From an uncultured Planctomycetia bacterium (GTDB lineage Bacteria > Planctomycetota > MHYJ01 > WSZJ01 > CAZWCX01): 64,000 nucleotides of DNA. Position numbers and translations under genes: made by a program. How positions within the stretch are numbered: the stretch's first letter is position 1; each line of letters begins with the position of its first letter. The DNA lies in NCBI GenBank assembly GCA_964632945.1, contig CAZWCX010000007.1:30088-94087 (forward strand). Reading direction: 5' to 3'. Of this stretch, positions 1-62,823 are shown piece after piece. The notes beneath the pieces were generated by a model. It saw only the letters and a list, made by a program, of their open reading frames with translations, had not been told where the DNA came from and ran no database searches.

Positions 1-2382
1 CGCTCGAGCGCGGCGACGACCTCCTTCGGCGCCGCCGACTTGGGCAGGAAGTCGTCGATGCGACGACCCACCGAGAGATGGGGATCGGCGAGCGCCGATA
101 CGACGATGACGGGGACCTGCCGGTTTTCGTCCGACGCGCGCACGGCCTCGAGCACCTCCCTCCCGGAAGTCTCCCCGAGGTGCAGGTCGAGCGTGATGGC
201 GTCGAAGGGTTGCGCGCGAACGGTTCGAATCGCCTCTTCTCCCGTGGCGGCCGTAGAGACGGCGAAGCCCGCTTCACCGAGGACACGCCGCAACCAGGCC
301 CGCTCCTTCGGATCGTCCTCGATGACCAGGATGTGCGCCTGGTCCCGCGAGAGAGGCGACTCCCCGGCATCCTCCTCCGGGGGGGCGCCCTGCGCCGGCT
401 CCGCCTCGGGGGCGGGAGGGGCCTCGTGACGGGACGGCAGAACCGCAAAAAACGTGGAACCCTGCCCGGGACGGCTGTCCACCCCCACTTCCCCGCCCTG
501 CCCCTCCACCAGACGCTTGGTGAGCGCGAGACCAAGGCCGGTACCCGGATGGCGCTTGTCGGGCCCCTGTCTCAGTTGCTGAAATTCGCGGAACAGCCGG
601 TCCAGGTCGGCCGCCTCGATCCCGATCCCGGTGTCCTCGACCGCAAGGCGGATCCGGTCCGCGCCTTCCGCGGTCGCGCGGATCGTGACGCGACCCTCCT
701 CGGGTGTGAACTTGATCGCGTTGGAGAGGAAGTTGTACAGCACCTGCTTCAGGCGCGCGGGGTCGAGGCGGACCGGGCCGAGCCCGTCGGCCACCTCGAT
801 CGTCAACCCGATTCGCTTGCGGGCCGCCGCCGTGCGCACGATTTCACAGACCTCCGCCACGGTCTTCGCCAGGTCGATGTCGACCGGATGGAACTCCAAC
901 TTCCCGGCCTCGACTTTCGACAGGTCCAGGATGTCGTTGATCAACTGCAGCAGATGCCCGGCGCTCGTCAGCACGTGGCCGAGGCACTCCCGCTGGGCAT
1001 CGTCCATCCTCCCGACTTCGCCGTCGTGAAGCAGGCGCGCAAACCCGAGGATGCCGTTGAGCGGCGTGCGGATCTCGTGCGACATGTTGGCGAGAAACTC
1101 GCTCTTCACCCGGCTCGCGGTGTGCGCGGCCAACGTGGCCTCTTCCAGAGCGTTCGACTTGTGCTGGAGTTCCTCCTGCTGACGGCGGATCGCGGTGATG
1201 TCGCGCGCGGCGGCGAAGATCCGTTGCCGGTCGGGGGACGCCACCGCGCTCCAAAGCAAACGGCGATAGGACCCGTCGCGGGTCCGGTAGCGATTCTCGA
1301 ACCGGCGGGTGGTTCCGCCGACGGACAGATGCTGCGCCTCGGCCCGGGTGGCGGCCCGATCCTCTTCATGCACGAAATCCAGGTAGGGTCTTCCCAACAG
1401 TTCCTCCAGCGAATAGCCCAAGGTCTGCGTCCACGCCGGATTCAACCGCCGGAACCGGCCTTCGGTATCGGCGATGCACAGCAAATCCAGCGACAGTGAG
1501 AAGAACCCGTCGCGCTCGATCTCCAGCTCGCGGAGGTGGGTGACTTCCCGCAAGATGCCGATGACGCAGGGGGCTGGGCGGCGGCCCGGGCTGAGGGTGC
1601 CCCGTACCGCGACGCGACGGCCGTCGCGCGCGAGGAGGTCCGCTTCGATCTCCTGGTGACGGGCGTGCCGCGAGGCTCGTTCGAAGGCGAGGCGAACCTG
1701 CTCCCGGCACTCCGGGGCGACCAGGTTCCAGAACGATTCCTGCGGTCGCTCCTCTCCCGGGTACCCGAGCGTGCGGCGCCACAGTTCATTGACGTAGACG
1801 ATCCGGCCGTCCAGGGCGACGTTCTGGAGCAGGACCGCGGAGTTCTCGATCAGGTCCTCATATTCCGCCTTGGAGATGGCGAGCTCCCGGGTGGCGCGGC
1901 GCAGTTCGAGCTGGATCGACACCTGGCGTCCCAGGATTCGCAGGGCGGTCTTCTGGGCCTCGGTCAGCGATCGCGGGACTGCGTCGATGACACACAACGT
2001 GCCGAGTGCGTGGCCGTCCGACGTGACCAGGGGCATGCCGGCGTAGAATTGCATCGGCGGCCTTGCCGTGACGAGCGGATTGTCGAAGAACCGCTCGTCC
2101 CCGGCGGCGTCGGCGACGATCATGAGATCGCTGCCGTGGATGGCATGCGCGCAAAAGGAAATGTCGCGCGGCGTTTCGATCGCGGCCAGCCCAACCCGTG
2201 CCTTGAACCATTGCCGTGCGCGATCGACCAGGCTGATCAGGGCGATCGGCGTGGCGCAGATCGTCGCCGCGAGGGCTGCCACATCGTCAAATTCTGCTTC
2301 GGGTTGCGTGTCGAGGATGCCCGTTTCCCGCAGCGCTTGAAGCCGTTCCGCCTCCTTGGCAGGCAGCGCAGCGATCTTCATG
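1..2382 (-). CDS. Hybrid sensor histidine kinase with GAF, PAS, PAS, HisKA, HATPase_c and C-terminal receiver domains. The gene runs off the window start and is absent from the supplied ORF track.
   Basis: The reverse-complement translation from the ATG at 2382 reads MKIAALPAKEAERLQALRETGILD. It continues through an H-box (SHEIRTPLNGILGF), a G-box region and a REC-like C-terminus (HILVIEDDP...DAITLDLHL). The reading frame stays open to position 1. Confidence 0.85.
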
Positions 2383-2733
2383 GGACCTCCCGGTCGCCTT
2401 GTCCGATCCGCTTCTCCCTGATGTCAGCCTAGACCTGCCGCTCCCGATGCGTCAAGGCAATCCTCCTCGGGGATGATACGGGGGGCGCATACGCGCAGGT
2501 TTCGCTCCGGGTTCGAGATTTCGCTTCCGACGTGCCGATGACCCGAGGGGGATCGTCGGGACCGCTGCGGAGCGACCGCGGGGACGACGACGGAGCGACC
2601 TGAAGCGGCGGCCGCGCCGCCCGTTCGGTCCCGCGGCTCCTCCCGGTGCCGGAATTGGCTCGACATTCCCCCGCACGGACTTAGAATCCACCCATTCGGA
2701 ATTCGAGGTTCGTCAATCAGGGAGGATCTCCGC

Positions 2734-3666
2734 ATGGCACGCCCCCGGATCGCGGTTGTTGGCGGCGGCTTCGTCGGCTCGACGACGGCCCAGAGACTGA
2801 TCGAGAAGGAGCTCGGCGACGTCATCCTCGCCGACATCGTCGAAGGCATGCCCCAGGGCAAGGCGCTCGACATGCTCGAGTCCGGACCGGTCGAGGGATA
2901 CGACGGCCGGATGATCGGAACCAACTCGATGGACGACCTCAAGGCGTGCGACGTCGTCGTCATGACCGCCGGTTTTCCGCGCAAGCCCGGAATGACCCGC
3001 GATGATCTCCTCAAGGCGAATGCCGACATCGTCGGCGGCGTGATGGAGAAGGTGAAGAAGCACAGCCCGAACGCGATCGTCGTGGTCGTGACCAACCCCC
3101 TCGACGTCATGACTTACCTGGCGTACAAGGTGACGGGGTTCCCCAAGCACCGCGTCGTCGGCATGGCCGGCGTCCTCGACTCCGCGCGATTCAGCTACTT
3201 CATCAGCGAAGCGCTCGACTGCTCGATGAAGGACATCCGCGCGATGGTGATGGGCGGACACGGCGACAGTATGGTCCCGATGCCGAGGTACAGCACGGTC
3301 AACGGCATCCCGATCACCGACCTCCTGCCGGCCGACAAGATCGCCGCGCTCGTCCAGCGGACCCGTGACGGCGGCGCCGAAATCGTGAAACTGCTCAAGA
3401 CCGGCAGCGCCTACTACGCGCCCTCCGCCTCGGTCGTTGCGATGGTGGCGAGCATTCTCCGCGATGAAAAGCGGATCCTGCCGTCCTGCGCCATCCTGGA
3501 AGGGGAGTTCGGCCTCAAGGACGTGGCGGTCGGCGTGCCGGCGAAACTCGGCCACAAGGGTCTCGAGCAGGTCGTGCAGCTCAAGCTGACCGCGGAAGAG
3601 GACGAGATGCTCAAGAAGTCCGCCGCCGGGGTGCAGGAACAGCTGAAATTCCTCAAGCTGATTTGA
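2734..3666 (+). CDS. mdh: NAD-dependent malate dehydrogenase of the LDH-like type.
   Basis: N-terminal Rossmann motif IAVVGGGFVGST. Conserved MDH blocks are present (VVVMTAGFPRKPGMTRDDLL, VVVTNPLD, GGHGDSMVP). A GGGAGG ribosome-binding site sits 9 nt upstream of the ATG. Confidence 0.95.
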   Translation: MARPRIAVVGGGFVGSTTAQRLIEKELGDVILADIVEGMPQGKALDMLESGPVEGYDGRMIGTNSMDDLKACDVVVMTAGFPRKPGMTRDDLLKANADIVGGVMEKVKKHSPNAIVVVVTNPLDVMTYLAYKVTGFPKHRVVGMAGVLDSARFSYFISEALDCSMKDIRAMVMGGHGDSMVPMPRYSTVNGIPITDLLPADKIAALVQRTRDGGAEIVKLLKTGSAYYAPSASVVAMVASILRDEKRILPSCAILEGEFGLKDVAVGVPAKLGHKGLEQVVQLKLTAEEDEMLKKSAAGVQEQLKFLKLI

Positions 3667-3677
3667 CCGGACAGGGC

Positions 3678-4649
3678 ATGGACACCGGGCCGGACGCATC
3701 GGACGGGCCGGGCGGCGGCGGCGCGCGCGCGGCGCCGCCGTCTGCGCTCTCGCGCCGGGAGGCGCTGACGGCCGGGGTGCGGATCCTCGCCTCCGTGGCC
3801 CTGGCCGCATGGCTGCCGCGCGCGGCGGCCCAGCAGGGCGGCGGCGGCGATTCCGGGATCCCCCGCCCGCGGGGACTTTGCTTCGGTCCGGACGGCCTCC
3901 TGTTCGCCACCGCCCTCGTTCCCGGCGCCGGATACGACCTCGTGCGCCTCGCGCCGGACGGGACCTCCGTCGACTCGATGACCTTCGGGACCGAGTTGCC
4001 GGGCGGACCGCTCAACCTGCCCACCCGCGTCCTCCGGTTCAACGACGACACCCTGGCGGTCGCGGAAACCAATGCGTGCCGGGTCCGTTTCTTCGGCCTG
4101 GACGGATCGCCGGGTCGGATCATCGGCGGGCCCGGCTTCACTCCCGGCTTCTTCCACTACCCGACCGGGCTGGCGGTGCACGACGGCCTGCTCTGGGTGT
4201 CGGACACGGGCAACCATCGGGTGCAGAGGCTGGACCGCTACGGATCGGTCGAGGGATCGGTGGGGATGCTCGGGGATGCGCCCGAGCGTTTGCGCCGGCC
4301 CGGGGACGTGGCGGTCATGCCCGACGGGACGCTGGCGGTCCTGGATGCCGGCCATTCGGCCGTGAAGACGTTCGACCGCGACGGCCGCCTGCGGGGCGTG
4401 CTGCCGTTGCCCGCGCCTCCCGGGGGTGCCGGCCCCCTGGCGATGACCGGCATTCCCGACTCGTTCGACCTGCTGGTGGCCGTGGACGGCGCCGGACTCT
4501 GGCGCGTGGATGGGCGCGGCGGCTCGCGGGTCCTGCTCGAGGGCGGGAAGGGGCGGGGAATCACGGCCCTGGCGTCGGATCCGGCCGGGGGACGGTTCGC
4601 GGCAGCGGAAGCGTCCACCGGACGGATCCACGTCTTCTCCGGAATCTGA
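3678..4649 (+). CDS. NHL-repeat beta-propeller protein with a twin-arginine (Tat) signal peptide. The start could alternatively be the TTG at 3663, which overlaps the mdh stop.
   Basis: An SRREAL motif followed by a hydrophobic region and an AAAQ cleavage-like site. Repeated NHL-like blocks are present (LWVSDTGNHRVQRLD, VAVMPDGTLAVLDAGHSAVKTFD). Confidence 0.7.
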   Translation: MDTGPDASDGPGGGGARAAPPSALSRREALTAGVRILASVALAAWLPRAAAQQGGGGDSGIPRPRGLCFGPDGLLFATALVPGAGYDLVRLAPDGTSVDSMTFGTELPGGPLNLPTRVLRFNDDTLAVAETNACRVRFFGLDGSPGRIIGGPGFTPGFFHYPTGLAVHDGLLWVSDTGNHRVQRLDRYGSVEGSVGMLGDAPERLRRPGDVAVMPDGTLAVLDAGHSAVKTFDRDGRLRGVLPLPAPPGGAGPLAMTGIPDSFDLLVAVDGAGLWRVDGRGGSRVLLEGGKGRGITALASDPAGGRFAAAEASTGRIHVFSGI

Positions 4650-4661
4650 GGGCGGCCCGCG

Positions 4662-6299
4662 ATGCAGGCGTTGACCGGCTGGCTGGGAGTGGCGGCCGTC
4701 TTCGGAATCCTCCGGACCGTGCAGGCCGGTGGGGTCGGGGGAGACGCCCGGCGCAGGTGGGTGGGGGCGATCTCCGTCGGCGCGCTCGGACTCGCGGCGT
4801 GGACGGCCTGCGGGGACCCGGTGACGGCGCTGCGGCGGACCCTCGCGGGCGTCCCGCTTTCCCCCGTGCTTTCGCTCTACCTGGGACTCGTGGCGGGCGT
4901 ATTGCTCCGGGCTGCCGGGGTCGGGGGGCTGATCCGCGACGGCGCCAAGAGGGCGAGCGCGGCCTGGGGGAGTCCGGCCGCCGTGGCCGCCGGGCTCAGT
5001 CTGTTTCCGCTCGTCTTCGCCCTTCCCTGCGGTCACGGTCTGGCGCTCGCGGTGTTGGTTGCCGTGACCGGACCGGACGGGGGAATGGGTCTGAATCCCG
5101 CGCAGTCCCGGGTCCTCGGGTCGGCGTTCCTTCGCACGGCCTATGGGGCCTGCGCGGCGGCCGCGCTCGGGGGGATCGCCCGGGTGGGGGAGGCCGCCCT
5201 GGCCGGGCCGGGAATGCCGGGAAGCACCGACCGGTTGCGCGCCCCGCAGTTGTTCTCGCTGGTGCTCGCGGCCGGGGCCACCGCCGTCTTCGCGCGCGCG
5301 CTGCGGTCGCCTGCGCGGGAAACCACGCCGGGCGAGGAACCTCCCCCCGGGCCGCCGGAAGTCGGCTCCGGTCCGGGCGGGGCCGCGGGGATCGCGGGGG
5401 TCCCGTCGCTCCTCGCACTGGTCTTTCTTCTGGTCCTGTTCGCGTCCGCGCATGTGGCCGTACGCCGGGTCGACCCGCTCACCTGGCTTGCGGCAGGCGT
5501 GGGGGGGTTGGCGATCGTGGCCGGGCTGGCCGGTCGGATCGCGCCGTCCCGCGTGCTGTCCGAAACGCCCGCCGGCCCGGTGGTCGACATGGCGCTCGGA
5601 CTGCTCCTGGCCGGCGGACTCGAGGCCGCGGGCGGTTTCCGGGTCATCGGCGATGCGCTGGCCCTCCCCGCGGGCTGGGCATTTCCGGGACCGGCGGGCG
5701 TGATGATCCTGCTCATCCACCTCCCGCTCCTGCTTCCGCTCGCCTGCGGTCGGGTGGTGGCGACGGCGCTCATTCCCCTGGTGGCCTCCGCAGGACCGTT
5801 GGGCGCGGGCGTGCTGACGACGACCGGGGTGACGGTCTGCGTCGGTGCATTCACCCTGTTCGCCGCGATGTCGTGCGTCGTTTCCCCTGCCGGCGGTTGC
5901 CTGGCCTGGGCGCGGGGAGCGGGGACGGACCTCGCGCAGGATCGCGTGCGTGACGCGCTCAATCTGGCGGCGATCGGGACCGCGGCGCCGCTGCTGGCGG
6001 CGTACCTGCGCTGGATGTCGGCGCCGCGGCCGCAACCGCTGGCGACCCTGCTGGCGGCCGCGGCGGTGATCGGCGCTGCCTGGCTCGTTCTGAATCGTCT
6101 GGTCCGACCTGCCTCGGTTCCGGAACCGCGGAGGGGGCGGCTCACGCTCGCGTTCGCAACGCTGGGGCTTTTATCGGGCGCCGCCACGGCCGGGTTGGCC
6201 GGTCTGCCCCTCGCCGGGGCAATCCTCGGCGGCGGGGGGGCCGGGGCATTGGCCGGGGGCGCCATGGCCCTGGTCCATCCGGAGGAGCCACGCGCATGA
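4662..6299 (+). CDS. Polytopic integral membrane protein of unknown function, with roughly 12 to 14 predicted helices.
   Basis: Long uninterrupted hydrophobic Ala/Gly/Leu/Val helical segments throughout. It starts 13 nt after the NHL gene, and its stop overlaps the next start as ATGA. Confidence 0.6.
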   Translation: MQALTGWLGVAAVFGILRTVQAGGVGGDARRRWVGAISVGALGLAAWTACGDPVTALRRTLAGVPLSPVLSLYLGLVAGVLLRAAGVGGLIRDGAKRASAAWGSPAAVAAGLSLFPLVFALPCGHGLALAVLVAVTGPDGGMGLNPAQSRVLGSAFLRTAYGACAAAALGGIARVGEAALAGPGMPGSTDRLRAPQLFSLVLAAGATAVFARALRSPARETTPGEEPPPGPPEVGSGPGGAAGIAGVPSLLALVFLLVLFASAHVAVRRVDPLTWLAAGVGGLAIVAGLAGRIAPSRVLSETPAGPVVDMALGLLLAGGLEAAGGFRVIGDALALPAGWAFPGPAGVMILLIHLPLLLPLACGRVVATALIPLVASAGPLGAGVLTTTGVTVCVGAFTLFAAMSCVVSPAGGCLAWARGAGTDLAQDRVRDALNLAAIGTAAPLLAAYLRWMSAPRPQPLATLLAAAAVIGAAWLVLNRLVRPASVPEPRRGRLTLAFATLGLLSGAATAGLAGLPLAGAILGGGGAGALAGGAMALVHPEEPRA

Positions 6300-6454
6300 T
6301 CGAACATCTGCTGGTTTTCGTCGCCGCAGGCGCGCTTTCCGGCGCACTCACCGGCCACGCGCTCGATCTTCGCCGCGGCCGGGAACTCGCGCAGGCTGCC
6401 GCCGGGGGCGCGGTCATGGGTCTGTTGATCGCCCTCACCGTGAGGCCGTCATGA
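6296..6454 (+). CDS. 52-aa small membrane peptide, translationally coupled to both neighbouring genes.
   Basis: ATGA start/stop overlaps occur at both ends (6296 and 6451). The sequence MIEHLLVFVAAGALSGALTGHALD...VMGLLIALTV has two short hydrophobic stretches. Confidence 0.4.
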   Translation: MIEHLLVFVAAGALSGALTGHALDLRRGRELAQAAAGGAVMGLLIALTVRPS

Positions 6455-6927
6455 CCGATGCCCCCGTTCCCCCCGCCCTTCCCCCCCCGGCGGTCGGCGA
6501 GGTCGCACTGCCGGCCGCCGCGGTCGCCGCCGCCGCCCTGGGAGCAAGATTCGCGCTTGCTCTCGGGCCCGGCGCGACCGACGCCCTCGCGTGCGCCTCG
6601 TGTCGCGCCTGCGATGCGACCGGCGACCTCTGCCCGGCGGGGATCCCGTTCATCTCCGAAATGGCGCGCGCCGCCCACACCGGCGACCTGGACCGGTTCG
6701 TCCGCGCCCGCGGCCTTCTCTGCGTCCGTTGCGAAAATTGCTCCGCCGCCTGCCCGGCGAATCTCGACCTCACCGGCCTGTTCGCCGTCGCCCAACAGCA
6801 GGCCCGCGTCGCCCTCGCGGCAGGAATCTGGCCGGCGCCGCTGACGGAAGCCGCCCTCGCCGAGGGCTGGCTCGGTCCGACTTTCTTCCCCTCGTTCCAA
6901 CGCGGGCGCGATCGGCGGGGAGGGTAG
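6451..6927 (+). CDS. Ferredoxin-like protein with two [4Fe-4S] clusters.
   Basis: Two canonical cluster motifs are present: CASCRACDATGDLCP and CVRCENCSAACP. Both fit the CxxCxxCx(3-6)CP pattern. A hydrophobic N-terminal segment may act as a membrane anchor. Confidence 0.65.
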   Translation: MTDAPVPPALPPPAVGEVALPAAAVAAAALGARFALALGPGATDALACASCRACDATGDLCPAGIPFISEMARAAHTGDLDRFVRARGLLCVRCENCSAACPANLDLTGLFAVAQQQARVALAAGIWPAPLTEAALAEGWLGPTFFPSFQRGRDRRGG

Positions 6928-6931
6928 TGGG

Positions 6932-7684
6932 TTGATCGCATTCCGCGGGTTCCTGACCCTGACCGTCCTCGTCGGGCTCCTCTTCGAGGATGCTCGACTC
7001 CTGTTCTTTCTCGCCGCCCTGGGAATCTGGGCGCTGGATCGGTTCGTCCGCATCGGGCTCGCGCCCTGCGGAAAGGGGACCTCCGCGCCGGTTCGCGGCG
7101 CGCGCTTCCGACTCGTTCTGCGCGCGCTATCTCCCCCCGCCGTCCCGCTCGTCCTCCTGCTCGGACTGTCGTTCCCCGCCGCGCGCGCCCTCGCGTCCTG
7201 GCGCGACACCCACGCCGGGCAGGTGCGCGCCTTGCCGAAGGCGACCCTGCGGGACGGCATCTGGTTCGGCCAAGGACAGGGATTGCGGGGTCCGGTTCGC
7301 GTGGCCGTGGAGGTGCGCGAGGGCAGGGTCCGCGACGTCCGTCTCCTGGCCGTCGCCGAGACGATTTCGGTGGGGGAGACCGCGATCGAGACGCTGCGAG
7401 CCGAGATGCTGGATTCCGGTCACGCGCCCGAGCGGCTCGTCACCGGCGCTACCCATGCCTCGCAGGGGTTCCGCGATGCCGTTCACGCGGCGCTCGTCGC
7501 CTCCGCCTTCGGCGCCCCGCAGCTGCCGGCGATGGCCCGCGTCTTCCTCTTCTTCACGCACAGCGATCTGCGCTTCCCGATGCTCAACGAGGTCGCCGCC
7601 CTTCTGGTCGGCGCCGCCCTCCTGGCCGGCCTCGTGGGCGGCGTTCGCCTTTCGCGCGGGTCGGGCGCGCGGCCGACCTCCTGA
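6932..7684 (+). CDS. Membrane protein with an FMN-binding domain and a candidate flavinylation motif. A TTG start is taken from the track.
   Basis: N-terminal transmembrane helices are followed by an FMN_bind-like core (GIWFGQGQGLRGPVRVAVEVREGRVRDVRLLAVAETISVGE). The motif LVTGATHAS resembles the [ST]GA[ST] site that ApbE flavinylates in NqrC and RnfG. A hydrophobic helix sits at the C-terminus. Confidence 0.6.
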   Translation: MIAFRGFLTLTVLVGLLFEDARLLFFLAALGIWALDRFVRIGLAPCGKGTSAPVRGARFRLVLRALSPPAVPLVLLLGLSFPAARALASWRDTHAGQVRALPKATLRDGIWFGQGQGLRGPVRVAVEVREGRVRDVRLLAVAETISVGETAIETLRAEMLDSGHAPERLVTGATHASQGFRDAVHAALVASAFGAPQLPAMARVFLFFTHSDLRFPMLNEVAALLVGAALLAGLVGGVRLSRGSGARPTS

Positions 7685-7750
7685 CGCCGACCGTCCGGAA
7701 CGGCGGATTCGATCCGCAGAGCGCCGAGCCGGGCGCAAGGAGGCTGGGGG

Positions 7751-8110
7751 TCAGTCGCCGGTGGGAACCACCGTGGCGGCCTCCACCATCAGCACCACGG
7801 TTCGCCCCGGCGCGCGCGTGCGGTGCACGACTCCGCGCGGGACCATCAACCCCTGCCGGGGGGCGAGTTCCACCGTCCGGCCTTCGAAGTCCAGGAACAA
7901 CCGCCCGTCGATGACGTAGAAGAACTCGTCCTCCTTGTCGTGCTTGTGCCAGTGAAACTCCCCTTCGAACACCCCGAGGCGCGCCACACAGTCGTTGATG
8001 CGGCACAGGCTCTGGTTCCACCACTTCTCGGGGCACTCGTCGGCCAGGCGCCCCGCATCGACCAGTTCGAGCGGTCCGTATTTGACGTCGGTGTGGATCG
8101 CGTAGTCCAT
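7751..8110 (-). CDS. Cupin-domain protein.
   Basis: Classic cupin motifs are present (GEFHWHKHDKEDEFFYVIDGRL...GLMVPRGVVHRT). The ATG was verified at 8110. Confidence 0.85.
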   Translation of the reverse strand: MDYAIHTDVKYGPLELVDAGRLADECPEKWWNQSLCRINDCVARLGVFEGEFHWHKHDKEDEFFYVIDGRLFLDFEGRTVELAPRQGLMVPRGVVHRTRAPGRTVVLMVEAATVVPTGD

Positions 8111-8207
8111 GGGGCCATGCTCCGAATCGGATCCGCCGAATCACCCCGGGTGGTTCCGCCGTCGCGGCGGGGATGGAAATCGCCCGTCACCCGGCTACAA
8201 TGTTCCG

Positions 8208-9023
8208 ATGATCCCTGCAATGCCCGCTCCGGTCGAAGTGCCGCGCCGGACCGATACGGGGGCCGCCCCGACGCCGTCCGGTCCCGATTTCGCGCGCCTG
8301 CTTGCACTCGCGCTCGTGCCCCAGGCCGGGATGTGGGCCGCGGTCATGACGCTCTCCTTCGCGACCCTCGAGCGGATCGAGGCGGGGGAGCGCGTGCTGC
8401 GTTCCCCGCTGGGCGGACTGCTCCGGTTCGGGGAGCCCTGGACGGCCGTGTGCGTGTCCGGCGCGGGGATTCTGCTGGGTCTGGTCGTGGCGGCGATCCC
8501 GGGCGCCGGGCGGGAACGCGCCCGGGTCATCCAGGGACTCGGTCTCGCCTTCACCGCCGCGCTGGTCGTCTGGTCGCACGCGTCCCTTACCGCGCTTCCG
8601 TTTCTCGCCGAAGTCCTGGGCGAGGCGACCCCCACACCCGCGCACGCCTGGGCCCTGGTTCCGGTCGCATTGGGCGCGCTCCTGCTCCTCTACCTGTGGA
8701 TCCTCGGCGACGACGGCAAGGGGGCCTTCCCGACCCTGGAAATCGCCCACCTGTTCGTTCTCGTCGCCGCGCTCTCCCTCCCCTTCGTGAGCTGGGACAT
8801 GGATCGGCGGTTGCCCCTCGACCTGGCGCTCCTGTGGAGCGGTTCGCTGGGGGCGGCGCTGGCCGGCCTGGTTTCCGGCTTCGCCCTCGACCGCGCCTGG
8901 CGAACGATGGCGCAACCGCACCGCGGATTCGGTCCCTGGTTCATCCTGGTCGTGTCGAGCGCGACCGCCTTGGCCGTGGTCCGTCGTCTGACCTACGTCT
9001 TCGACGTCGCGACCGGCCGGTAG
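8208..9023 (+). CDS. Hypothetical integral membrane protein with roughly 6 to 7 helices. The first in-frame ATG is at 8208; the track's 8109 start is less likely.
   Basis: Multiple hydrophobic helices (ILLGLVVAAIPGA, ALVPVALGALLLLYLWIL, HLFVLVAALSLPFV). No recognisable catalytic motif. Confidence 0.5.
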   Translation: MIPAMPAPVEVPRRTDTGAAPTPSGPDFARLLALALVPQAGMWAAVMTLSFATLERIEAGERVLRSPLGGLLRFGEPWTAVCVSGAGILLGLVVAAIPGAGRERARVIQGLGLAFTAALVVWSHASLTALPFLAEVLGEATPTPAHAWALVPVALGALLLLYLWILGDDGKGAFPTLEIAHLFVLVAALSLPFVSWDMDRRLPLDLALLWSGSLGAALAGLVSGFALDRAWRTMAQPHRGFGPWFILVVSSATALAVVRRLTYVFDVATGR

Positions 9024-9082
9024 AAGAGGTTGGGGAGCCATCTTTCCGCGGCGTTCGGGCGGACGCCACGCTTGTGCCGGCA

Positions 9083-9496
9083 TCACCGGTAGCGGTCCTC
9101 CAGGACGTCGTCGAGGCCGAAGATGTCCCGGGTGAGTTCGCAGCTCTGCGCCCCCTCCGGGCCGGTCACGGTGACCAGGTCCATCCGGGCTTCGCAGTCG
9201 GAGAGCCCGTGGCGGGTCAGGTACTCGAGCGCGGCGAAGGCCATCCGTCGCCGCTGGGCGAAGATCAGCCGCTCGCCGCCGTCCACGCCGGGGTCACCCG
9301 GGGCGACCGTCTTGATTTCGACGAAGCAGATCACCTCGTCGGCCATGGCGATGACATCGACCTCGCCCCGGCGGGTGCGGAATCCCTGCGCCAGGATGCG
9401 ATACCCCGCGGCGGTCAGGAACGCCAAGGCCCGATCCTCTCCCCGGCGGCCGCGTTCGCGGTTGGCGCGACCCCGGCGAACGGGTTCGCGCCGCAT
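9083..9496 (-). CDS. yraN: YraN/UPF0102-family predicted endonuclease.
   Basis: The sequence GEDRALAFLTAAGYRILAQGFRTRRGEVDVIAMADEVICFVEIKT matches the YraN core. The ATG was verified at 9496. This is the real C-terminal part of the track ORF 9083..10081. Confidence 0.8.
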   Translation of the reverse strand: MRREPVRRGRANRERGRRGEDRALAFLTAAGYRILAQGFRTRRGEVDVIAMADEVICFVEIKTVAPGDPGVDGGERLIFAQRRRMAFAALEYLTRHGLSDCEARMDLVTVTGPEGAQSCELTRDIFGLDDVLEDRYR

Positions 9497-35661: not shown

Positions 35662-35806
35662 CGGGGGGCGGACCGGACCGATAGAGTAAAGGGAACGGAC
35701 GGCCTGGCCCGGGCCGAGGAGCGTGGACCGGAGCGGGCGGGCCACCCCTGGACCCGGCGGAGGCGGTGCGCAGGGTGTTCGCACCCTCGGCGCGCGCGTT
35801 CCTCTC

Positions 35807-38800
35807 ATGACGGAACCTCGCAATCCGGATACGTCGGCCGGATCCGCGCCGACCCCGCGTCCGGATGCCACCCTGCCCCTTCCGATGGCGGGTGAGGCGT
35901 CCGGGGGCGCGGGGGCGACGGAGCCTCGCGGGCCGCATCTCGCTCCGGAACGCGCCGACTCGGTCGGCTTCAACCTCGAGGACGAATTCCGCGGGCTCCC
36001 GCGTCACTTCGGTCGCTTCCAGATCCTCGAGGAACTCGGTCGGGGCGGGATGGGGGTCGTTTACCTGGCCTATCATCCCGAACTCCGCGTCCACTTCGCG
36101 GTCAAGGTGCTGCTCGCCGGAGACCAGCCGCCCGCCGAACTGCTGTCCCGATTCGAACGCGAGGCGCGCGCGCTCGCCCGCATCCGGCATCCCGGCTTCG
36201 TCGCCGTCCACGACCTCGGCGTTGCGGACGGAAGGGCGTTCATCGCCATGGAGTATGTCGAGGGGGTGTCGCTGGAAAGGCTGCTCGAGGATCCGGTCGG
36301 CCACGGCGTCGCCGAGGCCGGACCGGGATCGGCGCCTGCGCCGGTCGGCGGTTCCCCCGCGGGTCCGATCCGGGTTCGCTCCCGCCGCGGCGCGCGCGGC
36401 ATCGCTCCGCGCGAGGCGGCGGGAATGATTGCGGAGGTCGCAGAGTCCCTGCAGGCGGCGCATGAAGCCGGCATTCTTCATCGCGACCTGAAGCCCGCCA
36501 ACATCCTTCGTGATCGCGCCGGTCGCCTGAAGATCATGGACTTCGGGATCGCGAAGATGACGGGCGCCGGGACGCTGCAGACCCAGGCCGGAGCGGTCAT
36601 GGGAACCCCTTCGTACATGAGTCCCGAGCAGGCGTCCGGCGATGTGGATCGCATGGATGAGCGCAGCGACGTGTATCAGCTCGGAGCGGTGCTCTACGAG
36701 ATGTTGACCGGCACCGTGCCGCACGACGGGCCGAGCCCGATGGCCATCGCCATGTCGGTCCTGAAGAGCGAGCCGGCGCGTGTGCGGGTTCGGTCACCGT
36801 GGGTGCCGGTCGGCTTGGCGGCCATCGTCGAGAAGGCAATGGAGCGCGAATCCCGTCAGCGGTACAGCACCGCGCAGTCGCTGGCGCTCGACCTCCGCCG
36901 ATGGCTGGCCGGAGAGCCGACCGAAGCGCGTCCGCCGTCCTGGTGGAAGCGGCCGGTGCGCTGGCTGCATCGCCATCGGGGGCCCGCCGCGCTCGGCGGT
37001 GTCGCGCTGGTCTGTCTGATCGCGGCCGTCCTTGCCGTGGTGCGGTGGCGCGGCGCCGAGGCGCGCAGATGGAGCGACCTGGCGGACAGGGCCGCTCTCT
37101 ATCGCAAGGCGGCCATCGACCTGCGTCGCGAGGGCCTTTCGCTCGAGCGCAAGGGCCGCGACTACCTGGCGCTGCTCGGCGCCGCGGTCACCGAGGCGGA
37201 AGCGGCGGATCCGTCGCGGCCGGAGCCCCGCTGGCACCTCGGGCGCCTGCAGCGCGCGCTGATGGACTTCCGCGCGGCGCGCGCCGCGCAGGAGGAGGCC
37301 CTGCGTCGCGATCCGGAGTTCGCACCCGCGCGGTACGAACACGCGGTCCTGCTCGCCGCGGAGTACCGGGCGCGGATCGATCGCCTGCGGGATGCCTGGT
37401 GGGCGTCGGCAGGCGCGCAGCGGCCGTCCGGCCCGGATCCGGACCGCGAAGGGGGAAGCGCGATCGCTGCGGGGCCGCCTCCCTCGGCCGACCTGGCCGC
37501 GGCGGATCCGGTCGCCGGCGCACTTCGCCGGGCCTTGCGGGAGGACCTCAAGCGGCTCGAGGCGGCAACCGGCCGGTCCGGGGACGACGAAGGGGTGATC
37601 ACTTCCGCCATGCGGCGCTGTGCGCGCGGGCTCTACCTGTCCGGGGAGGCGTCCGGACCGGAGGGATGGGCGGCGTCGGCCGAAGAGCTCGAAGCCGCCC
37701 TGGCGGCGGACCCGGGACTGGAGGAGGCCGTCGAGGCCCTGGCCGCGCTGCGGCGCGACGAAGGGAAGCCCGCCGCCGCCGTGGCGGTGTACACGCGCGG
37801 CATCGAAGCCGATCGCGGCTACGCTCCCTTCCGCTCCGGCCGTGCCGGGATGTGGACCGAGGAAGGGATGCAACGGTTCGGTCGCGGCGAGGACCCGGGC
37901 GCTGCCTTCACCGCTGCGCTGGAGGACTTCGCCCAGGCACTCGAAACCGCGCCCGACGTGCCGGCGACCTGGGTCGGACGGGGCATGACGCGGCTCAACC
38001 GCGGCGTGTGGATCGTCCTGGCGGGCGGGGATCCGACGTCCGAATACGAGGCGGCGGTCGCGGACTTCGGTCAAGCTCTCGCCCGGGCGCCGGACCTCGT
38101 CGATGCGCTCAGCTGGCGCGGGAGTACGCGGTCCAATCTCGCTCGCCATCGCGAGGAGCGGGGGGTCGATCCCGGGGATGCCGTGCGGCTGGCCCGGGAG
38201 GACTTCGATCGCGCGCTGGAACTCGATCCTCGCGCATCCGGGGCGCTGCGCGGCCGGGCCAATCTGCTCAACAACATCGGCCTGGCGAAGCGGCGTCGGG
38301 GCGAAGATCCCACTCCGGACTACCAGGCGGCGATCGCGGACTACGGGCGCGCGCTGGCGCTGGATCCGCGCTCCGAGGAGGCCTGGGTTCGGCGGGGGTT
38401 GGCGCGCGTCAACCTGGGCGTGTACGTGGTCGGGCGCGGCGGGGATCCCCTGGCGTGGTACGACGAGGCGATCGCCGACTTCGGACAGGCGATCGAGCGC
38501 TTCCCGCGCGAGGCGGAGGGCTACCTGCGACGCGGGACGGCACGCTGCAACCGGGCGATCTACCGCGCCTCGCGGGGCGCGGACGCCCGGCCCGACTATG
38601 CCGCGGCCCTGTCGGATCTCGATGCCGCGGTGGAGCGCAATCCGCGCTGGGACGAGGCGTGGCGGACGCGCGGCATCCTTCGGGCCCGGCATGCGGTCGA
38701 CGCGCGACAGCAGGGGGAGGACCCGACCCCGCTGTACGAGGCGGCCATGGCCGACTTTGGTGAGGCCATCCGCGTGAATCCGGCGCAGGAGGAGAACTGG

Positions 38801-39250
38801 ACGGAACGCGGCCAGACGCGCCTGAACTGGGCCATCGGCAAGTTGGCCGCCTTCCAGTTGCCGGCAGGGCTGCTCGAGGCGGCCGAGGCCGATTTCACGG
38901 CGGCGCTCGAGCGCAATCCCGCGCGGGACATGGCCTGGCAGGGACGCGGGCACGCGCGGCGCCTCGCGGCGATGCTCGGCGCCATGCGCGGGAAAGATCC
39001 GGCGGCCGGACTCGCGGCGGCGCTCGACGATCTGGACCGGGCGGTGCGGGCAAACCCGGGAAACGCGGTCTCATTCGCCCGACGGGGGTCGTTGCACGTG
39101 GTGCTGGGCAACGACGAGAAGGCGCTTTCCGACTTCGCCTCCGCCGCGGCCCTCGATCCGGCGAGCACCGCGTCGTACGCCATGGAGATCCAGATGGCTC
39201 GCGCGCGCCTGACGCAGCGGAAGCCGGAAGAGGACCTCGGGGAAGATTGA
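35807..39250 (+). CDS. Ser/Thr protein kinase with a single transmembrane segment and an extensive C-terminal TPR array.
   Basis: GRGGMGVVY, AVKVL, HRDLKPANIL, DFGIAK and SPEQ are present. One hydrophobic helix (ALGGVALVCLIAAVLAVV) separates the kinase from the TPR array. The ATG was verified at 35807. Confidence 0.9.
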   Translation: MTEPRNPDTSAGSAPTPRPDATLPLPMAGEASGGAGATEPRGPHLAPERADSVGFNLEDEFRGLPRHFGRFQILEELGRGGMGVVYLAYHPELRVHFAVKVLLAGDQPPAELLSRFEREARALARIRHPGFVAVHDLGVADGRAFIAMEYVEGVSLERLLEDPVGHGVAEAGPGSAPAPVGGSPAGPIRVRSRRGARGIAPREAAGMIAEVAESLQAAHEAGILHRDLKPANILRDRAGRLKIMDFGIAKMTGAGTLQTQAGAVMGTPSYMSPEQASGDVDRMDERSDVYQLGAVLYEMLTGTVPHDGPSPMAIAMSVLKSEPARVRVRSPWVPVGLAAIVEKAMERESRQRYSTAQSLALDLRRWLAGEPTEARPPSWWKRPVRWLHRHRGPAALGGVALVCLIAAVLAVVRWRGAEARRWSDLADRAALYRKAAIDLRREGLSLERKGRDYLALLGAAVTEAEAADPSRPEPRWHLGRLQRALMDFRAARAAQEEALRRDPEFAPARYEHAVLLAAEYRARIDRLRDAWWASAGAQRPSGPDPDREGGSAIAAGPPPSADLAAADPVAGALRRALREDLKRLEAATGRSGDDEGVITSAMRRCARGLYLSGEASGPEGWAASAEELEAALAADPGLEEAVEALAALRRDEGKPAAAVAVYTRGIEADRGYAPFRSGRAGMWTEEGMQRFGRGEDPGAAFTAALEDFAQALETAPDVPATWVGRGMTRLNRGVWIVLAGGDPTSEYEAAVADFGQALARAPDLVDALSWRGSTRSNLARHREERGVDPGDAVRLAREDFDRALELDPRASGALRGRANLLNNIGLAKRRRGEDPTPDYQAAIADYGRALALDPRSEEAWVRRGLARVNLGVYVVGRGGDPLAWYDEAIADFGQAIERFPREAEGYLRRGTARCNRAIYRASRGADARPDYAAALSDLDAAVERNPRWDEAWRTRGILRARHAVDARQQGEDPTPLYEAAMADFGEAIRVNPAQEENWTERGQTRLNWAIGKLAAFQLPAGLLEAAEADFTAALERNPARDMAWQGRGHARRLAAMLGAMRGKDPAAGLAAALDDLDRAVRANPGNAVSFARRGSLHVVLGNDEKALSDFASAAALDPASTASYAMEIQMARARLTQRKPEEDLGED

Positions 39251-51490: not shown

Positions 51491-54400
51491 CTAGGTTCCG
51501 GGAGTTCCCTGCGGGCCCGGCGGCGTCGCGCCTTCCGCCGGCGGCGTGGGTGCGGCGGCCGGCGGGTGTCCCGCGCCCCAGTTCGGGGAAGCGGCGGTCG
51601 TTCCGGGCATCGGCGCCTCCGGGCCCCCCTCCGGGGCACTTCCGTCGCCGGCCCCGCCGCCCCACCAGGAGCGTACTCCCTGGAGCGCGCCGTACAGGAC
51701 CGCGAGCATGAAGCACGCGCCCGCCGTGAAGACCAGCACCGACAGGTACTCCCGGTACGTTTCCTCCAGCAGCGTGTGCGCGCCGAGGAGCACGAGCGTG
51801 CCCGCGCCAAGCCAGCCGATTCGGGCGAGGTCGGTGACGCCGGGCACGCGCCAGAGGGCCCACACGACCAGGAGCAGGAGCAGGGCCATCGTGCCGCGCG
51901 CGACGTAGCCGACGCTGGTGCGCACGCAGCGGGACCGGATCCGTCCGGGTTCATCGAGCGAAATCAGGGTCTGGAAGTGGAACGACTTCCCGGACTTCGG
52001 TCGCGCGCCGCTCGACATGGAGGGGAGGCCGGCGGCCTTGCCCTGCTGGACCTCCATCGCCCCGCCGCCCATGCGGGCTTCGGACATGCGGCGAATGACT
52101 TCCACGTTGCGCTGGTACTGGACGTCTCCCTGGCCGGCGGGTGCGTTCGCGCCCGTCGACTGCGGGGCCATGGCGATCGGCGCATCGGGGTCGGCCGCCG
52201 TGAGCTCGTTCTCGGTGAAGTAGGAGACGCGGCGCATGTTCCCCGAGTCGGCCACCAGTTCGTAATTCACCGGCAGGGAGACCGACCAACCGAGCCGCAG
52301 GACCGGCAGGTTCATCGGCGGCGCGGCGAGGTCGATGACGTCGACCACGCCCATCGGCTTCTGTTTCCGGCCGAATCGAAGGCGGACGTCGAACGTCTCG
52401 TCGCCGCGGGCCGCCTTGGCGATCGGCACCAGGGTGATCGTCTTGCCCGACTCCTGCGTCTGGAACGGGGTCTCCTGCGCACCGGCCACGAAGAGGTGCC
52501 AGATGTCGGCATCCGCGGGAAGTTCGAGCCGCAGGTACTGTTCCCGGGTGTTGCGAACCCGGGCGGCCAGGTCGGTGATCATGTGGCCTTCCTCGGTGAT
52601 GGTCGTCGACAGCCGCAGGGCCTCGACCACCGCGACGAGGACCTTGGCGAACTCGTTCTGGCGGATGTTGGCCGAGAAAGAGTACGGGTGCCGGAGGTAG
52701 CGGAACGCCATCAGGATCGGCACCGAGATGCCGCGCTTGTAGTCGGCGGGGACTTCCTTGTCGTCGATCGGCGTGAGCGCCTCGATCGCGGGCGCCGACA
52801 TCTCCACGTCCGGCCGCGCCGCAAATGCGAGGTAGCCGGTTTCGCGCTCGAGATCGTAGGCCTCCCCGACCGGCTGGACCTGGGGGCCGGTGAAGGTCAC
52901 GGCGCCGCTGCGGTCCTTCACGTCCCGCTGGAAGGTCAGGTAGAGGGTGTACGCGCCGGTCTGGGGCGAGTGGAGGGTTACCGTCCACACGTCCCCCTCC
53001 CCGGGGCGCGCGCCCTTGGTCTTTTCCTTGTGCTTGATCGCCTGCCCGTCGATGTCCGGGTCGTTGACGCCCGGCGGGAGCTTGATCTTGAACTGGCTCA
53101 CGCCGGCGTACAGGATCGAGAAGCGCAGGGTCGTGGAGCAGGTCACCAGCTGCTCGGCGATGGAGACGAAGCTGAAGGTCTCGGCGGTCACGCGCGGCTT
53201 GACCTTCTCCACCGACAGCCCCAGCGACCACGGGGATTCGAAGTACTTGTAGGCGATCGCGAACGACGCCGCCCGTCCGGCGAGGCCGGCGGGGAGGTCC
53301 TTGAGGTCGATCTCGGTCAGTTTCTGCGTCCCCTTGGCGTCGGTCTTGACGCGCAGGTCGGCGGCGGTGGTGAGGGCCAGGTGGCCGCGCTCCTTTTTCA
53401 CGTCGCGGACGGCGAAGGCGGGCAGGCCGATCCCCTTGGTCACCTCGGTCAGCGGCGTCTCCGCCTTGATCGAGAGGACGTAGGCGCCTTCGACCTTGGA
53501 CTTGAGGGTCACGGTGAGAACGCCGTCGGTCTCATCGCGCTTCCAGTCGTCGAGGTTCTCGCCCTCCACCGACAGGATGCGCAATTCGGGGGCGAGCCAC
53601 GCCTTGAGGGAGAAGACGCCCGCCTTGCGGATGTCGTACGCGAGTTCGGCGGAGAGTTCGAGGTTCTTGTCGGTGATGGAGTACACTCCGCGGGTCTCGA
53701 CCGTCACCTCCGGCATGACGTCGGTGACGCCGACCGCGAGCTTGTAGGGGTGTTTCAGGTAGCGGAAGGCCAGCTCGACCGGCTCCCGGTCCGGAGCGGG
53801 CTGCCCGCCCTTGCCGCCGTTCCCGGCCGCCGCGGGCTCATCGAAGAGCGTCCACGCCAGTTCGCGGACGTTGATCTGTCGAATCCCGTCGAAGGCACGG
53901 GCCTCCGCCTTCACGCCCGGGACCGTGGTGAGGGCGACGTAGCCCCACTCGCGCTCGACGTCGAGCACCTCGATGGCGGGCAGGGAGACGTCCGCGGCGT
54001 CCTTCACCGCGCGTTCGGTTTCCAGCGTGAGGCGGTAGTCGCCTTCCGCCTTGGAGCGGAGGTCCACCGCCAGAACGTTGTCCTTCACCTGCTGCGTATT
54101 GATGTCCCGGCCGCCGAGGTCGAGCAGTTTGAGGCCGTCGGGGAGGCGAATGAGGAAGCGGAACACGCCGGCGTCGCGGATCTTGTAATTCACCGCGGTG
54201 GACAGGCGCAGGGTGTCTTTGGAGAGCCGCGCGACCGTGAAGACATCCGCCGTCACCTTGGGCGTCACCTCGCTGACGGAGAGCGAGGCGTCGAAGGGCC
54301 GCTTGAGGTACTTGAAGCCCAGCTGCATCTCGTCGCCGGACTTCAGGTCGCCGGGCAGTTCCTGCACGTCGACCTGGGCGACGTCCTTGGCCGAGGCGAC

Positions 54401-55354: not shown

Positions 55355-55497
55355 GGGGGCCTCCAGCAGGTTCGGAAGGAGCCGGGGGGCGGACCGGGGC
55401 GCGGGGACGATCCCGCGCCGGCCGCGAGCGGGCTCCGGAAGTACAGGGACACGAGCGGGCGGCCGTCCGGGCGCGCCCGCGGGGGGCGGAATTCGGA

Positions 55498-60120: not shown

Positions 60121-60130
60121 GGCGCGATCC

Positions 60131-62440: not shown

Positions 62441-62823
62441 GCCCCCTCCGGATCAGTCGACATGGAAACGACGGTCGGCCTCTCCCGGCCGGCCCGCTTG
62501 GAGAGACGGTCGCACCCCGGGGGGGAGCGACGAAGCAGGAATGACGGATTGGACGCCAGGAATACCGTCCCAGTTTCCAACTATTCCGCATTCCGGTCAA
62601 GAGAGCAATGCAGGGCCCGAGGTCTTGGGCGATCGGTGCGCCGGCGGGGGCGGTCCCGGGTGGATCGTCCGGATCCCGCAACCCCTATGGAGATAAAGGG
62701 ATGCACAGGCCGGGGGGCCTCGGCCTCCGGCCGCTCCGGCACCGGCTTCGCGGTCGGGCCGAGCGCGCCGCTCGCCGACGGGCACGCGTGGCCGCACCCG
62801 ATTCGGTCGGATCCTCGACGCCC

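Follow-up and report, generated by a model that had tools for sequence, protein, structure and literature searches.

Five consecutive plus-strand genes in a 64,000-nucleotide (nt) stretch of a Planctomycetia contig (the window, ∼70% GC, to whose whole length all positions refer) may encode a membrane redox complex of a new type, a reading that we favor tentatively. Put more broadly, the putative operon, rare yet conserved from bacteria to archaea, probably provides a hitherto undescribed route across the membrane, either for electrons or for a substrate handled by redox chemistry. The genes lie directly downstream of a malate dehydrogenase (MDH) gene, mdh, and code for an NHL-repeat protein with a twin-arginine translocation (Tat) signal, a 545-amino-acid (aa) membrane protein, a 52-aa micro-protein, a ferredoxin, and a membrane protein with an FMN_bind domain.

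In the redox complex as we picture it, the core would consist of the 545-aa protein, the 52-aa micro-subunit, and the membrane-anchored 2×[4Fe-4S] ferredoxin. Four cysteines of the 545-aa protein would hold a mid-membrane redox center, in the simplest case an Fe-S cluster. On the cytoplasmic side, this center would be reduced by the ferredoxin; it would pass the electrons on to a periplasmic flavin mononucleotide (FMN), and then to a periplasmic partner, the Tat-exported NHL propeller; the electrons could also run the opposite way. By alternating access, the transport domain would make the center reachable from each side in turn. We infer the cofactor, and the path and direction of the electrons, from the features described below. 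A more specific version, which we consider unlikely, is that an elevator-type transporter fold has turned electron carrier in both Bacteria and Archaea, with a Cys4 Fe-S or metal center in its mobile domain, convergently with NqrD/E and RnfA/E. The center would then be shuttled between the ferredoxin and a flavin, cytochrome, or Fe-S acceptor, possibly together with ion movement.

A predicted carrier fold with a cysteine-lined pocket

The two halves of the 545-aa protein are homologous to each other, and an AlphaFold model built from a 21-sequence alignment (pLDDT 83.8, pTM 0.87) has the fold of an inverted repeat in which each half contributes one hairpin and one discontinuous helix. DSSP assigns 24 helical segments to this model, among them the two re-entrant hairpins and the two broken helices; the initial annotation was right to call a membrane protein, and its figure of ∼14 helices was approximate. 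As modeled, the protein has the elevator-type fold of the ion-transporter superfamily, with fold-comparison values of 18.4 to ArsB, 18.1 to Pho90, 15.6 to DiT1, 15.4 to INDY, 14.0 to VcINDY, 13.6 to TRAP DctM, and 12.0 to AbgT, and Foldseek concurs in matching it to carrier folds.

Identity to the carriers of this superfamily is just 8 to 16%. The 545-aa protein has no match in Pfam and only two chance-level lines in NCBIfam (E > 0.1), with no transporter family at an E value of ≤1 in either, and the family profile matches no PDB sequence even at an E value of 10. It does not belong to the curated transporter families with polar substrate or ion motifs (such as ArsB, CitMHS, and Na_sulph_symp). 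HMMER, run exhaustively against 1.84 billion representative proteins, yielded only 25 relatives, whereas a word-indexed protein search returned the protein itself and one relative; one short related locus came from a scan of a genome collection, and two came from a metagenome scan. Archaeal-type loci encode the membrane protein as two homologous genes, both of which have PCGR and SCGPS motifs (L010, 2401 to 4517; L011, 2281 to 4250; L012, 5734 to 9258), and the N-terminal half is fused to extracellular domains, which in L012 are of the beta-helix/NosD-like type according to Pfam.

Each repeat carries the motif (L/M)PCG(R/H) at the hairpin tip and SCGPSPxGG, or a variant of it, at the broken helix. 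DSSP on the model places Cys123 (nt 5028), Cys164 (nt 5151), Cys362 (nt 5745), and Cys405 (nt 5874) at the tip of each hairpin and at each helix break, and in the aligned sequences these residues are conserved in 17/17, 18/19, 15/16, and 14/14 cases, respectively. The hairpin cysteine is followed by Arg (PCGR) in 15 of 16 sequences in repeat 2 and in 14 of 17 in repeat 1, where the window's clade has His. In the ArsB structure (PMC13381914), the substrate pocket is bounded by the hairpin 1/loop 1 and hairpin 2/loop 2 motifs, and in our model the four pocket-forming elements of the fold each carry a near-invariant cysteine. The two Arg/His charges could offset the net charge of −2 of a Cys4 cluster.

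The remaining pocket chemistry is sparse. No His or acidic residue is invariant in the family alignment (H125 itself being Arg in 14 of the 17 sequences), nor are acidic or Ser/Asn/Thr coupling motifs conserved, and Cys, Arg, and Gly occupy the pocket positions. The protein is thus not a b-type cytochrome and is without the usual coupling motifs of carriers. Heme-ligating His pairs, which the initial annotation suggested looking for, find no counterpart among conserved residues of the family, and a heme-binding membrane cytochrome of the MsrQ- or DUF4405-like type can be set aside for the same reason.

The fold and the pocket also bear on the reading of the 545-aa protein as a genuine elevator carrier. 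Its substrate would be thiol-loving or anionic, with metals or metalloids, sulfur species, and C4-dicarboxylates as candidates, and would be bound by the cysteines and arginines; the Fe-S, flavin, cytochrome, and NHL partners would oxidize or reduce it ahead of its transport or afterward. We rate this as somewhat unlikely. All of the fold matches, including MleN, are carriers, the cysteines sit where ArsB and DASS proteins bind substrate, and the two near-invariant Arg/His residues next to the hairpin cysteines might serve to bind carboxylates or oxyanions; the failure to match transporter families or PDB chains by sequence and the lack of conserved coupling motifs tell against it. The initial annotation had named a recognizable transporter unrelated to redox chemistry as an outcome that would undo its interpretation. 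The fold is indeed that of carriers, but with no sequence match to transporter families, and with pocket cysteines and Fe-S partners, we do not regard a redox function as refuted.

The same cysteines could instead form two dithiol/disulfide pairs in a relay like that of DsbD or CcdA, taking reducing equivalents across the membrane; the Fe-S proteins would reduce these pairs inside, in the manner of a heterodisulfide reductase, and the pairs would reduce periplasmic partners outside. Each repeat supplies a hairpin cysteine (PCGR) and a helix-break cysteine (SCGPSP) that are expected to lie close together, and Pro-flanked cysteines at helix starts recall the motifs of DsbD and CcdA. DsbD-type proteins are moreover one of five classes of flavinylation-associated membrane proteins (PMC8238504). 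We nevertheless find such a relay quite improbable, as the fold is unlike that of the DsbD family and as FMN and heme carry single electrons or hydride and do not exchange thiols; the partners encoded in related loci are considered below.

A micro-protein and a ferredoxin beside the membrane protein

The free-standing 52-aa micro-protein resembles the C-terminal glycine-zipper hairpin of the 545-aa protein. It is 62% identical to its counterpart in the closest related arrangement, locus L001, and aligns with genes of 50 to 63 aa in L005, L007, L008, and L009; in L010 to L012, micro-genes of the same size and motif come after the membrane gene. The GC content at third codon positions (GC3) is 0.84 to 0.89 in frame for the other four module genes and 0.75 for the micro-open reading frame (micro-ORF), whose composition is ambiguous but which homologues in other loci support as a coding gene. 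It had been thought invisible to ordinary gene callers, which is incorrect: the exact product is present in a public protein collection (NCBI and Logan), and gene calls for L001, L005, and L009 to L011 include homologous micro-genes. Sequence comparison identifies the 52-aa protein as a conserved small subunit that occurs from planctomycetes to archaea and is a paralogue of the membrane protein's C-terminal hairpin.

The ferredoxin has an N-terminal hydrophobic anchor and two cysteine motifs of the CxxCxxCx(n)CP form, as expected of a 2×[4Fe-4S] ferredoxin and as first annotated: C48-x2-C-x2-C-x6-CP (nt 6592 to 6636), ending with Cys61, and C91-x2-C-x2-C-x3-CP (nt 6721 to 6756), ending with Cys101. 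All eight cysteines are kept in 8 homologues adjoining the membrane gene. Weak matches to rnfC, qmoC, and cdhA accompany its sequence-based assignment to the helical RnfC/HdrC/QmoC type, and the charge rule would place its clusters on the cytoplasmic side, although this is uncertain.

A candidate flavinylated protein and a Tat-exported propeller

The FMN_bind protein is a four-helix membrane protein with its domain at nt 7280 to 7495. The flavinylation-like TGAT motif picked out in the initial annotation (residues 171 to 174, nt 7442 to 7453, ending in Thr174) aligns with SGAT in the solved FMN4 domain 1 of the multi-flavinylated protein 8p2b (E value, 5.5e-7), and [S/T]GA[S/T] is the target site of ApbE (PMC11334425). 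FMN is probably attached covalently by ApbE at Thr174. A positively charged loop (residues 42 to 60) and a likewise positive C terminus flank the FMN domain, the charges giving an in-out-in topology by the positive-inside rule, and in the L005 homologue a C-terminal Fe-S domain is fused across one helix, in agreement with a periplasmic FMN domain; we predict that location in the window protein as well. The motif is TGAT in L001 and RGAT in L005. At L002 (2037 to 2672) and L003 (2180 to 2815) it is PGAR or HGAR, and these homologues thus lack the residue for covalent FMN. A word-indexed search with the FMN_bind protein returned only itself, and a family profile added nothing.

The NHL protein carries the Tat-like motif SRREAL (nt 3750 to 3767), as annotated, followed by a hydrophobic stretch and AAAQQ, and the twin arginine is kept in the NHL homologues of L001, L004, and L005 (RRGFL or RREFI). 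It is predicted to be exported by Tat and presumed to form a six-bladed propeller; a single-sequence AlphaFold model is poor (pLDDT 45) and has 24 strands.

Conserved gene order in bacteria and archaea

Ten independent related loci had enough flanking DNA for comparison (L001 to L003, L005, and L007 to L012), a small number that comes mostly from metagenomes. Co-occurrence of the five genes, on which the initial annotation had made its case depend, is borne out by L001 (42 to 68% identity) and L005 (∼27%), where their order is retained. It is conceivable that the genes are mere neighbors whose products work independently, given that high-GC compact genomes often have 4-nt overlaps between unrelated genes, that MDH is a housekeeping enzyme, and that no experiment ties the proteins together. 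We consider this extremely improbable. Gene order is kept at 27 to 50% protein identity across backgrounds of 72, 58, 44, and 32% GC, and the membrane-protein gene adjoins Fe-S protein genes, as a core pair, in 10/10 independent loci from two domains of life; judged from these sequences, chance adjacency is effectively excluded. The micro-subunit gene adjoins the membrane-protein gene in 8/10, with the short loci L002 and L003 as the exceptions.

Around this core lie lineage-specific additions, which comprise FMN_bind proteins, NrfH-type cytochromes, HdrB/TfrB-like and NapH-like proteins, and dehalogenase homologues (Table 1). In L003 and L005, genes for NrfH/NapC-type multiheme cytochromes follow downstream with translational coupling. 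Such varied partners (dehalogenase homologues, Hdr-like proteins, and NrfH) are hard to fit to the common substrate that a genuine carrier would need, and a plain carrier needs no dedicated anchored ferredoxin and micro-subunit in both domains of life. We note, however, that enzymes of C4-dicarboxylate metabolism are encoded nearby, namely mdh upstream (from two MDH clades) and TfrA/TfrB-like genes in L005, that flavinylated proteins are known to be encoded together with transporters (PMC8238504), and that those beside iron transporters are thought to act on the transported substrate by redox chemistry in this way. With regard to a dithiol relay, the archaeal loci always include a CCG-domain HdrB/TfrB-like protein and an HdrC-like ferredoxin, and a DsbD_2 gene is present in L007, whereas the bacterial loci, the window among them, are without a CCG-domain or thioredoxin-like partner.

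A small cysteine protein of 96 to 139 aa, with conserved Cys pairs (mostly CxxC), is encoded immediately 5′ of the membrane gene in many loci (L005, 4510 to 4878; L006, 113 to 532; L007, 7717 to 8007; L009, 7624 to 7965). It has one transmembrane helix (none in the 96-aa L007 copy), occurs as an N-terminal fusion in P0018 and P0021, is absent from the window, and has no Pfam or NCBIfam match. The dehalogenase homologues (L007, 3604 to 7409; L008, 156 to 1544 and 6462 to 8384) have N-terminal transmembrane helices and no Tat signals, and are followed by a membrane protein of 60 to 78 aa; those of L007 score 146 to 157 bits against TIGR02486 (cutoff, 160), and the L008 copies were assigned by sequence similarity only.

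Operon organization and linkage to mdh

The positions and tight junctions of the five genes given in the initial annotation hold against the ORF list and the sequence, and profile matches confirm its NHL, ferredoxin, and FMN_bind assignments (Table 1). ATGA overlaps join the genes at 6296 and 6451, and the remaining gaps within the module are 12 and 4 nt. With TTG 3663 as its start, the NHL gene overlaps the stop codon of mdh, whereas public gene calls contain its product as begun at ATG 3678. A scan of positions 2300 to 9200 found two sigma-70-like consensus matches where 0.2 was expected, and no promoter-like site within the module; the single one able to serve the genes lies upstream of mdh. 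We infer that the genes from mdh to that for the FMN_bind protein are probably one operon, with mdh as its first gene, and any role for the NHL protein and MDH in it is likewise provisional.

The mdh gene adjoins the 5′ side of the NHL gene in the window, in L001 (7992 to 8990), and in the group L004/L013/L014 (L004, 5579 to 6553), that is, in every planctomycete-type locus that reaches far enough (two of three lineages besides the window). A 4-nt overlap between mdh stop and NHL start is seen in L001 and L004; the window has it only if the NHL gene begins at TTG 3663. Since the L001 enzyme belongs to a different MDH clade (25% identity), these sequences suggest that the linkage was selected twice.

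Table 1. Features of the module in the window and gene content of related loci
Feature or locus	Position	Strand	Description
Sigma-70-like promoter candidate	2660..2687	+	TCGACA-16-TAGAAT, upstream of mdh; consensus match only
Malate dehydrogenase (mdh)	2734..3666	+	LDH-like clade; TIGR01763 at 445 bits
Tat-signal NHL-repeat protein	3663..4649	+	Pfam NHL, E value 1.4e-19
545-aa membrane protein	4662..6299	+	Internally duplicated; ArsB/DASS-like ion-transporter-superfamily fold (model)
52-aa micro-protein ORF	6296..6454	+	Two-helix glycine zipper; weak Gly-zipper match; homologues elsewhere
158-aa ferredoxin	6451..6927	+	Fer4_17, 25.6 bits (cutoff, 22.2)
250-aa FMN_bind membrane protein	6932..7684	+	PF04205, 30 bits (cutoff, 22)
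L001			Metagenome, 72% GC; mdh, NHL, membrane protein, 52-aa gene, ferredoxin, FMN_bind; identities 47, 42, 62, 68, and 50% (NHL to FMN_bind)
L004/L013/L014			Metagenome; mdh, NHL, membrane protein
L002/L003			L002 is a Planctomycetia metagenome-assembled genome; membrane protein, ferredoxin, FMN_bind-like
L003			NrfH/NapC-type multiheme cytochrome gene overlapping the FMN_bind-like stop codon
L005			Bacterium, 57.7% GC, ∼27% identity; Tat-NHL, small Cys-rich protein, membrane protein, 50-aa micro-gene, ferredoxin, FMN_bind-Fer4 fusion (RGAT), NrfH-type cytochrome, two more Fe-S proteins, TfrA-like flavoprotein
L007 and L008			Micro-gene, small Cys protein, membrane protein, and ferredoxin amid reductive-dehalogenase homologues and HdrC/QmoC-like ferredoxins
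L009 to L012			L009 is from a Methanomassiliicoccales genome; HdrC-like ferredoxin, CCG (HdrB/TfrB-like) protein, small Cys protein, membrane protein (often split), two micro-genes, NapH-type protein (fused to GltD in L009 and L011; the L012 contig ends before it)

Several other features of the window were recorded. A 304-aa polytopic protein (8109 to 9023, plus strand) with no family match is encoded behind a divergent cupin gene (7751 to 8110, minus strand), is absent from the related loci, and is probably unrelated to the module. An Rfam scan at gathering thresholds found no riboswitch or other RNA element. ARAGORN reports a 95-nt tRNA-Thr (CGT) at 37279 to 37373 on the minus strand, inside a plus-strand ORF (35690 to 39250); no Rfam tRNA scores above the gathering threshold, and the call is likely a false positive. 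Three long, partly overlapping ORFs (∼1,540, 1,570, and 770 aa) with strong coding composition occupy 51491 to 62452 on the minus strand.

Weighing the redox reading

The module was initially described as possibly an uncharacterized periplasm-facing electron-transfer module. A functional redox module is supported by the conserved gene order, the Fe-S neighbors, the flavinylation-type motif, and the periplasmic FMN topology, whereas the heme-ligating His pairs hinted at initially are not supported, no His being conserved in the family. A number of observations nevertheless weigh against a membrane redox complex. No cofactor can be read from the sequence, the fold is that of solute carriers with dicarboxylate carriers among its nearest neighbors, and the upstream mdh and the TfrAB-like genes nearby fit substrate transport as well. 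The side of the membrane on which the clusters lie is itself uncertain, as the L009 ferredoxin homologue starts with a Tat-like RRDFM motif. Neither apbE nor an obvious electron donor or acceptor occurs among the 37 window ORFs that were scanned (∼7 ORFs beyond 29 kb lay outside the scan). Covalent FMN is not universal, given that PGAR or HGAR stands in place of TGAT in the FMN_bind homologues of planctomycete clade 2, and L007 and L008 are without FMN_bind altogether. The sample of related loci is also small and mostly metagenomic. Separately, window ORFs of at least 80 aa contain no CxxCH motif, and thus none of them encodes a c-type cytochrome partner.

To our knowledge, membrane-crossing electron routes to periplasmic enzymes are known for only a few architectures, namely b-heme bundles, NapH/NosR, DsbD, and the Fe-S site of NqrD/E-RnfA/E. 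If the membrane redox complex is real, an ArsB/DASS-like fold with a Cys-lined pocket would be a new electron-transfer architecture, in which a carrier fold has been recruited for redox chemistry, and the module would give a role to an unannotated family found beside dehalogenase homologues, Hdr/Tfr-like enzymes in Methanomassiliicoccales, and NrfH-type cytochromes. Should the protein instead be a genuine carrier, it would define a new family of redox-dependent transporters, and the twice-acquired link to mdh would then call for an explanation.

Comparison with known systems

We found no earlier description of such a module in the literature searched, the coverage of which is incomplete. A survey of flavinylation-associated proteins distinguishes five transmembrane classes (NapH-like, MsrQ-like, PepSY-like, DsbD, and NQR/RNF-like) and includes no NHL protein or membrane protein of this kind (PMC8238504), and neither does a follow-up paper on flavinylation (PMC11334425).

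A functional parallel is with Na+-NQR and Rnf. NqrD-E is an inverted duplication with four cysteines, whose intramembrane [2Fe-2S] cluster is alternately reachable by the NqrF ferredoxin domain and by flavinylated NqrC (PMC10643135). The module shares with these complexes a duplicated membrane unit with four cysteines at mid-membrane half-helices, an anchored ferredoxin, a periplasmic FMN_bind protein with [S/T]GA[S/T], and, in archaea, the split into two genes; it differs in that the membrane unit has an ArsB/DASS-like fold and in having no NqrB/RnfD, NADH or quinone module, or second flavin subunit. Neither RnfA/E-NqrD/E (PF02508) nor RnfD/NqrB (PF03116) is represented, and the Pfam scan of the 37 window ORFs detected no Nqr/Rnf core family at the thresholds used, in keeping with the initial statement that Nqr and Rnf core subunits are missing. 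A distant Rnf/Nqr homologue is ruled out by sequence (Pfam and NCBIfam) as well as by fold. The resemblance to the NqrD/E-NqrC core is, by this analogy, functional and not evolutionary.

The NosR, NapH-like, and PceC proteins (PMC8238504) likewise combine a periplasmic FMN_bind domain, helices, and a cytoplasmic di-cluster ferredoxin, which are fused in that order in L005, and they are tied to Tat-exported proteins, NrfH-type cytochromes, and dehalogenase homologues. The window encodes the FMN_bind protein and the ferredoxin separately, and the Nos, Nap, and Pce systems have no counterpart of the transporter-fold protein or the micro-subunit. Membership in the NapH/NosR group is ruled out, as the window proteins have no Fer4_5 domain (PF12801) and a separate NapH-like gene occurs only in the archaeal loci. 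DsbD and CcdA share a duplicated membrane domain with Pro-flanked cysteines at the membrane center and belong to a flavinylation-associated class, but they have another fold and size, and the partners of the module are ferredoxins and not thioredoxins.

The structural parallel lies with ArsB, the DASS/SLC13 proteins (VcINDY), Pho90, DiT1, TRAP DctM, and AbgT, in which inverted repeats likewise contribute a re-entrant hairpin and a broken helix to a central pocket. The 545-aa protein departs from this superfamily in having Cys and Arg in the pocket instead of polar Ser/Asn/Thr residues, an extra C-terminal glycine-zipper hairpin together with a free-standing copy of it, and Fe-S partners in every locus examined.

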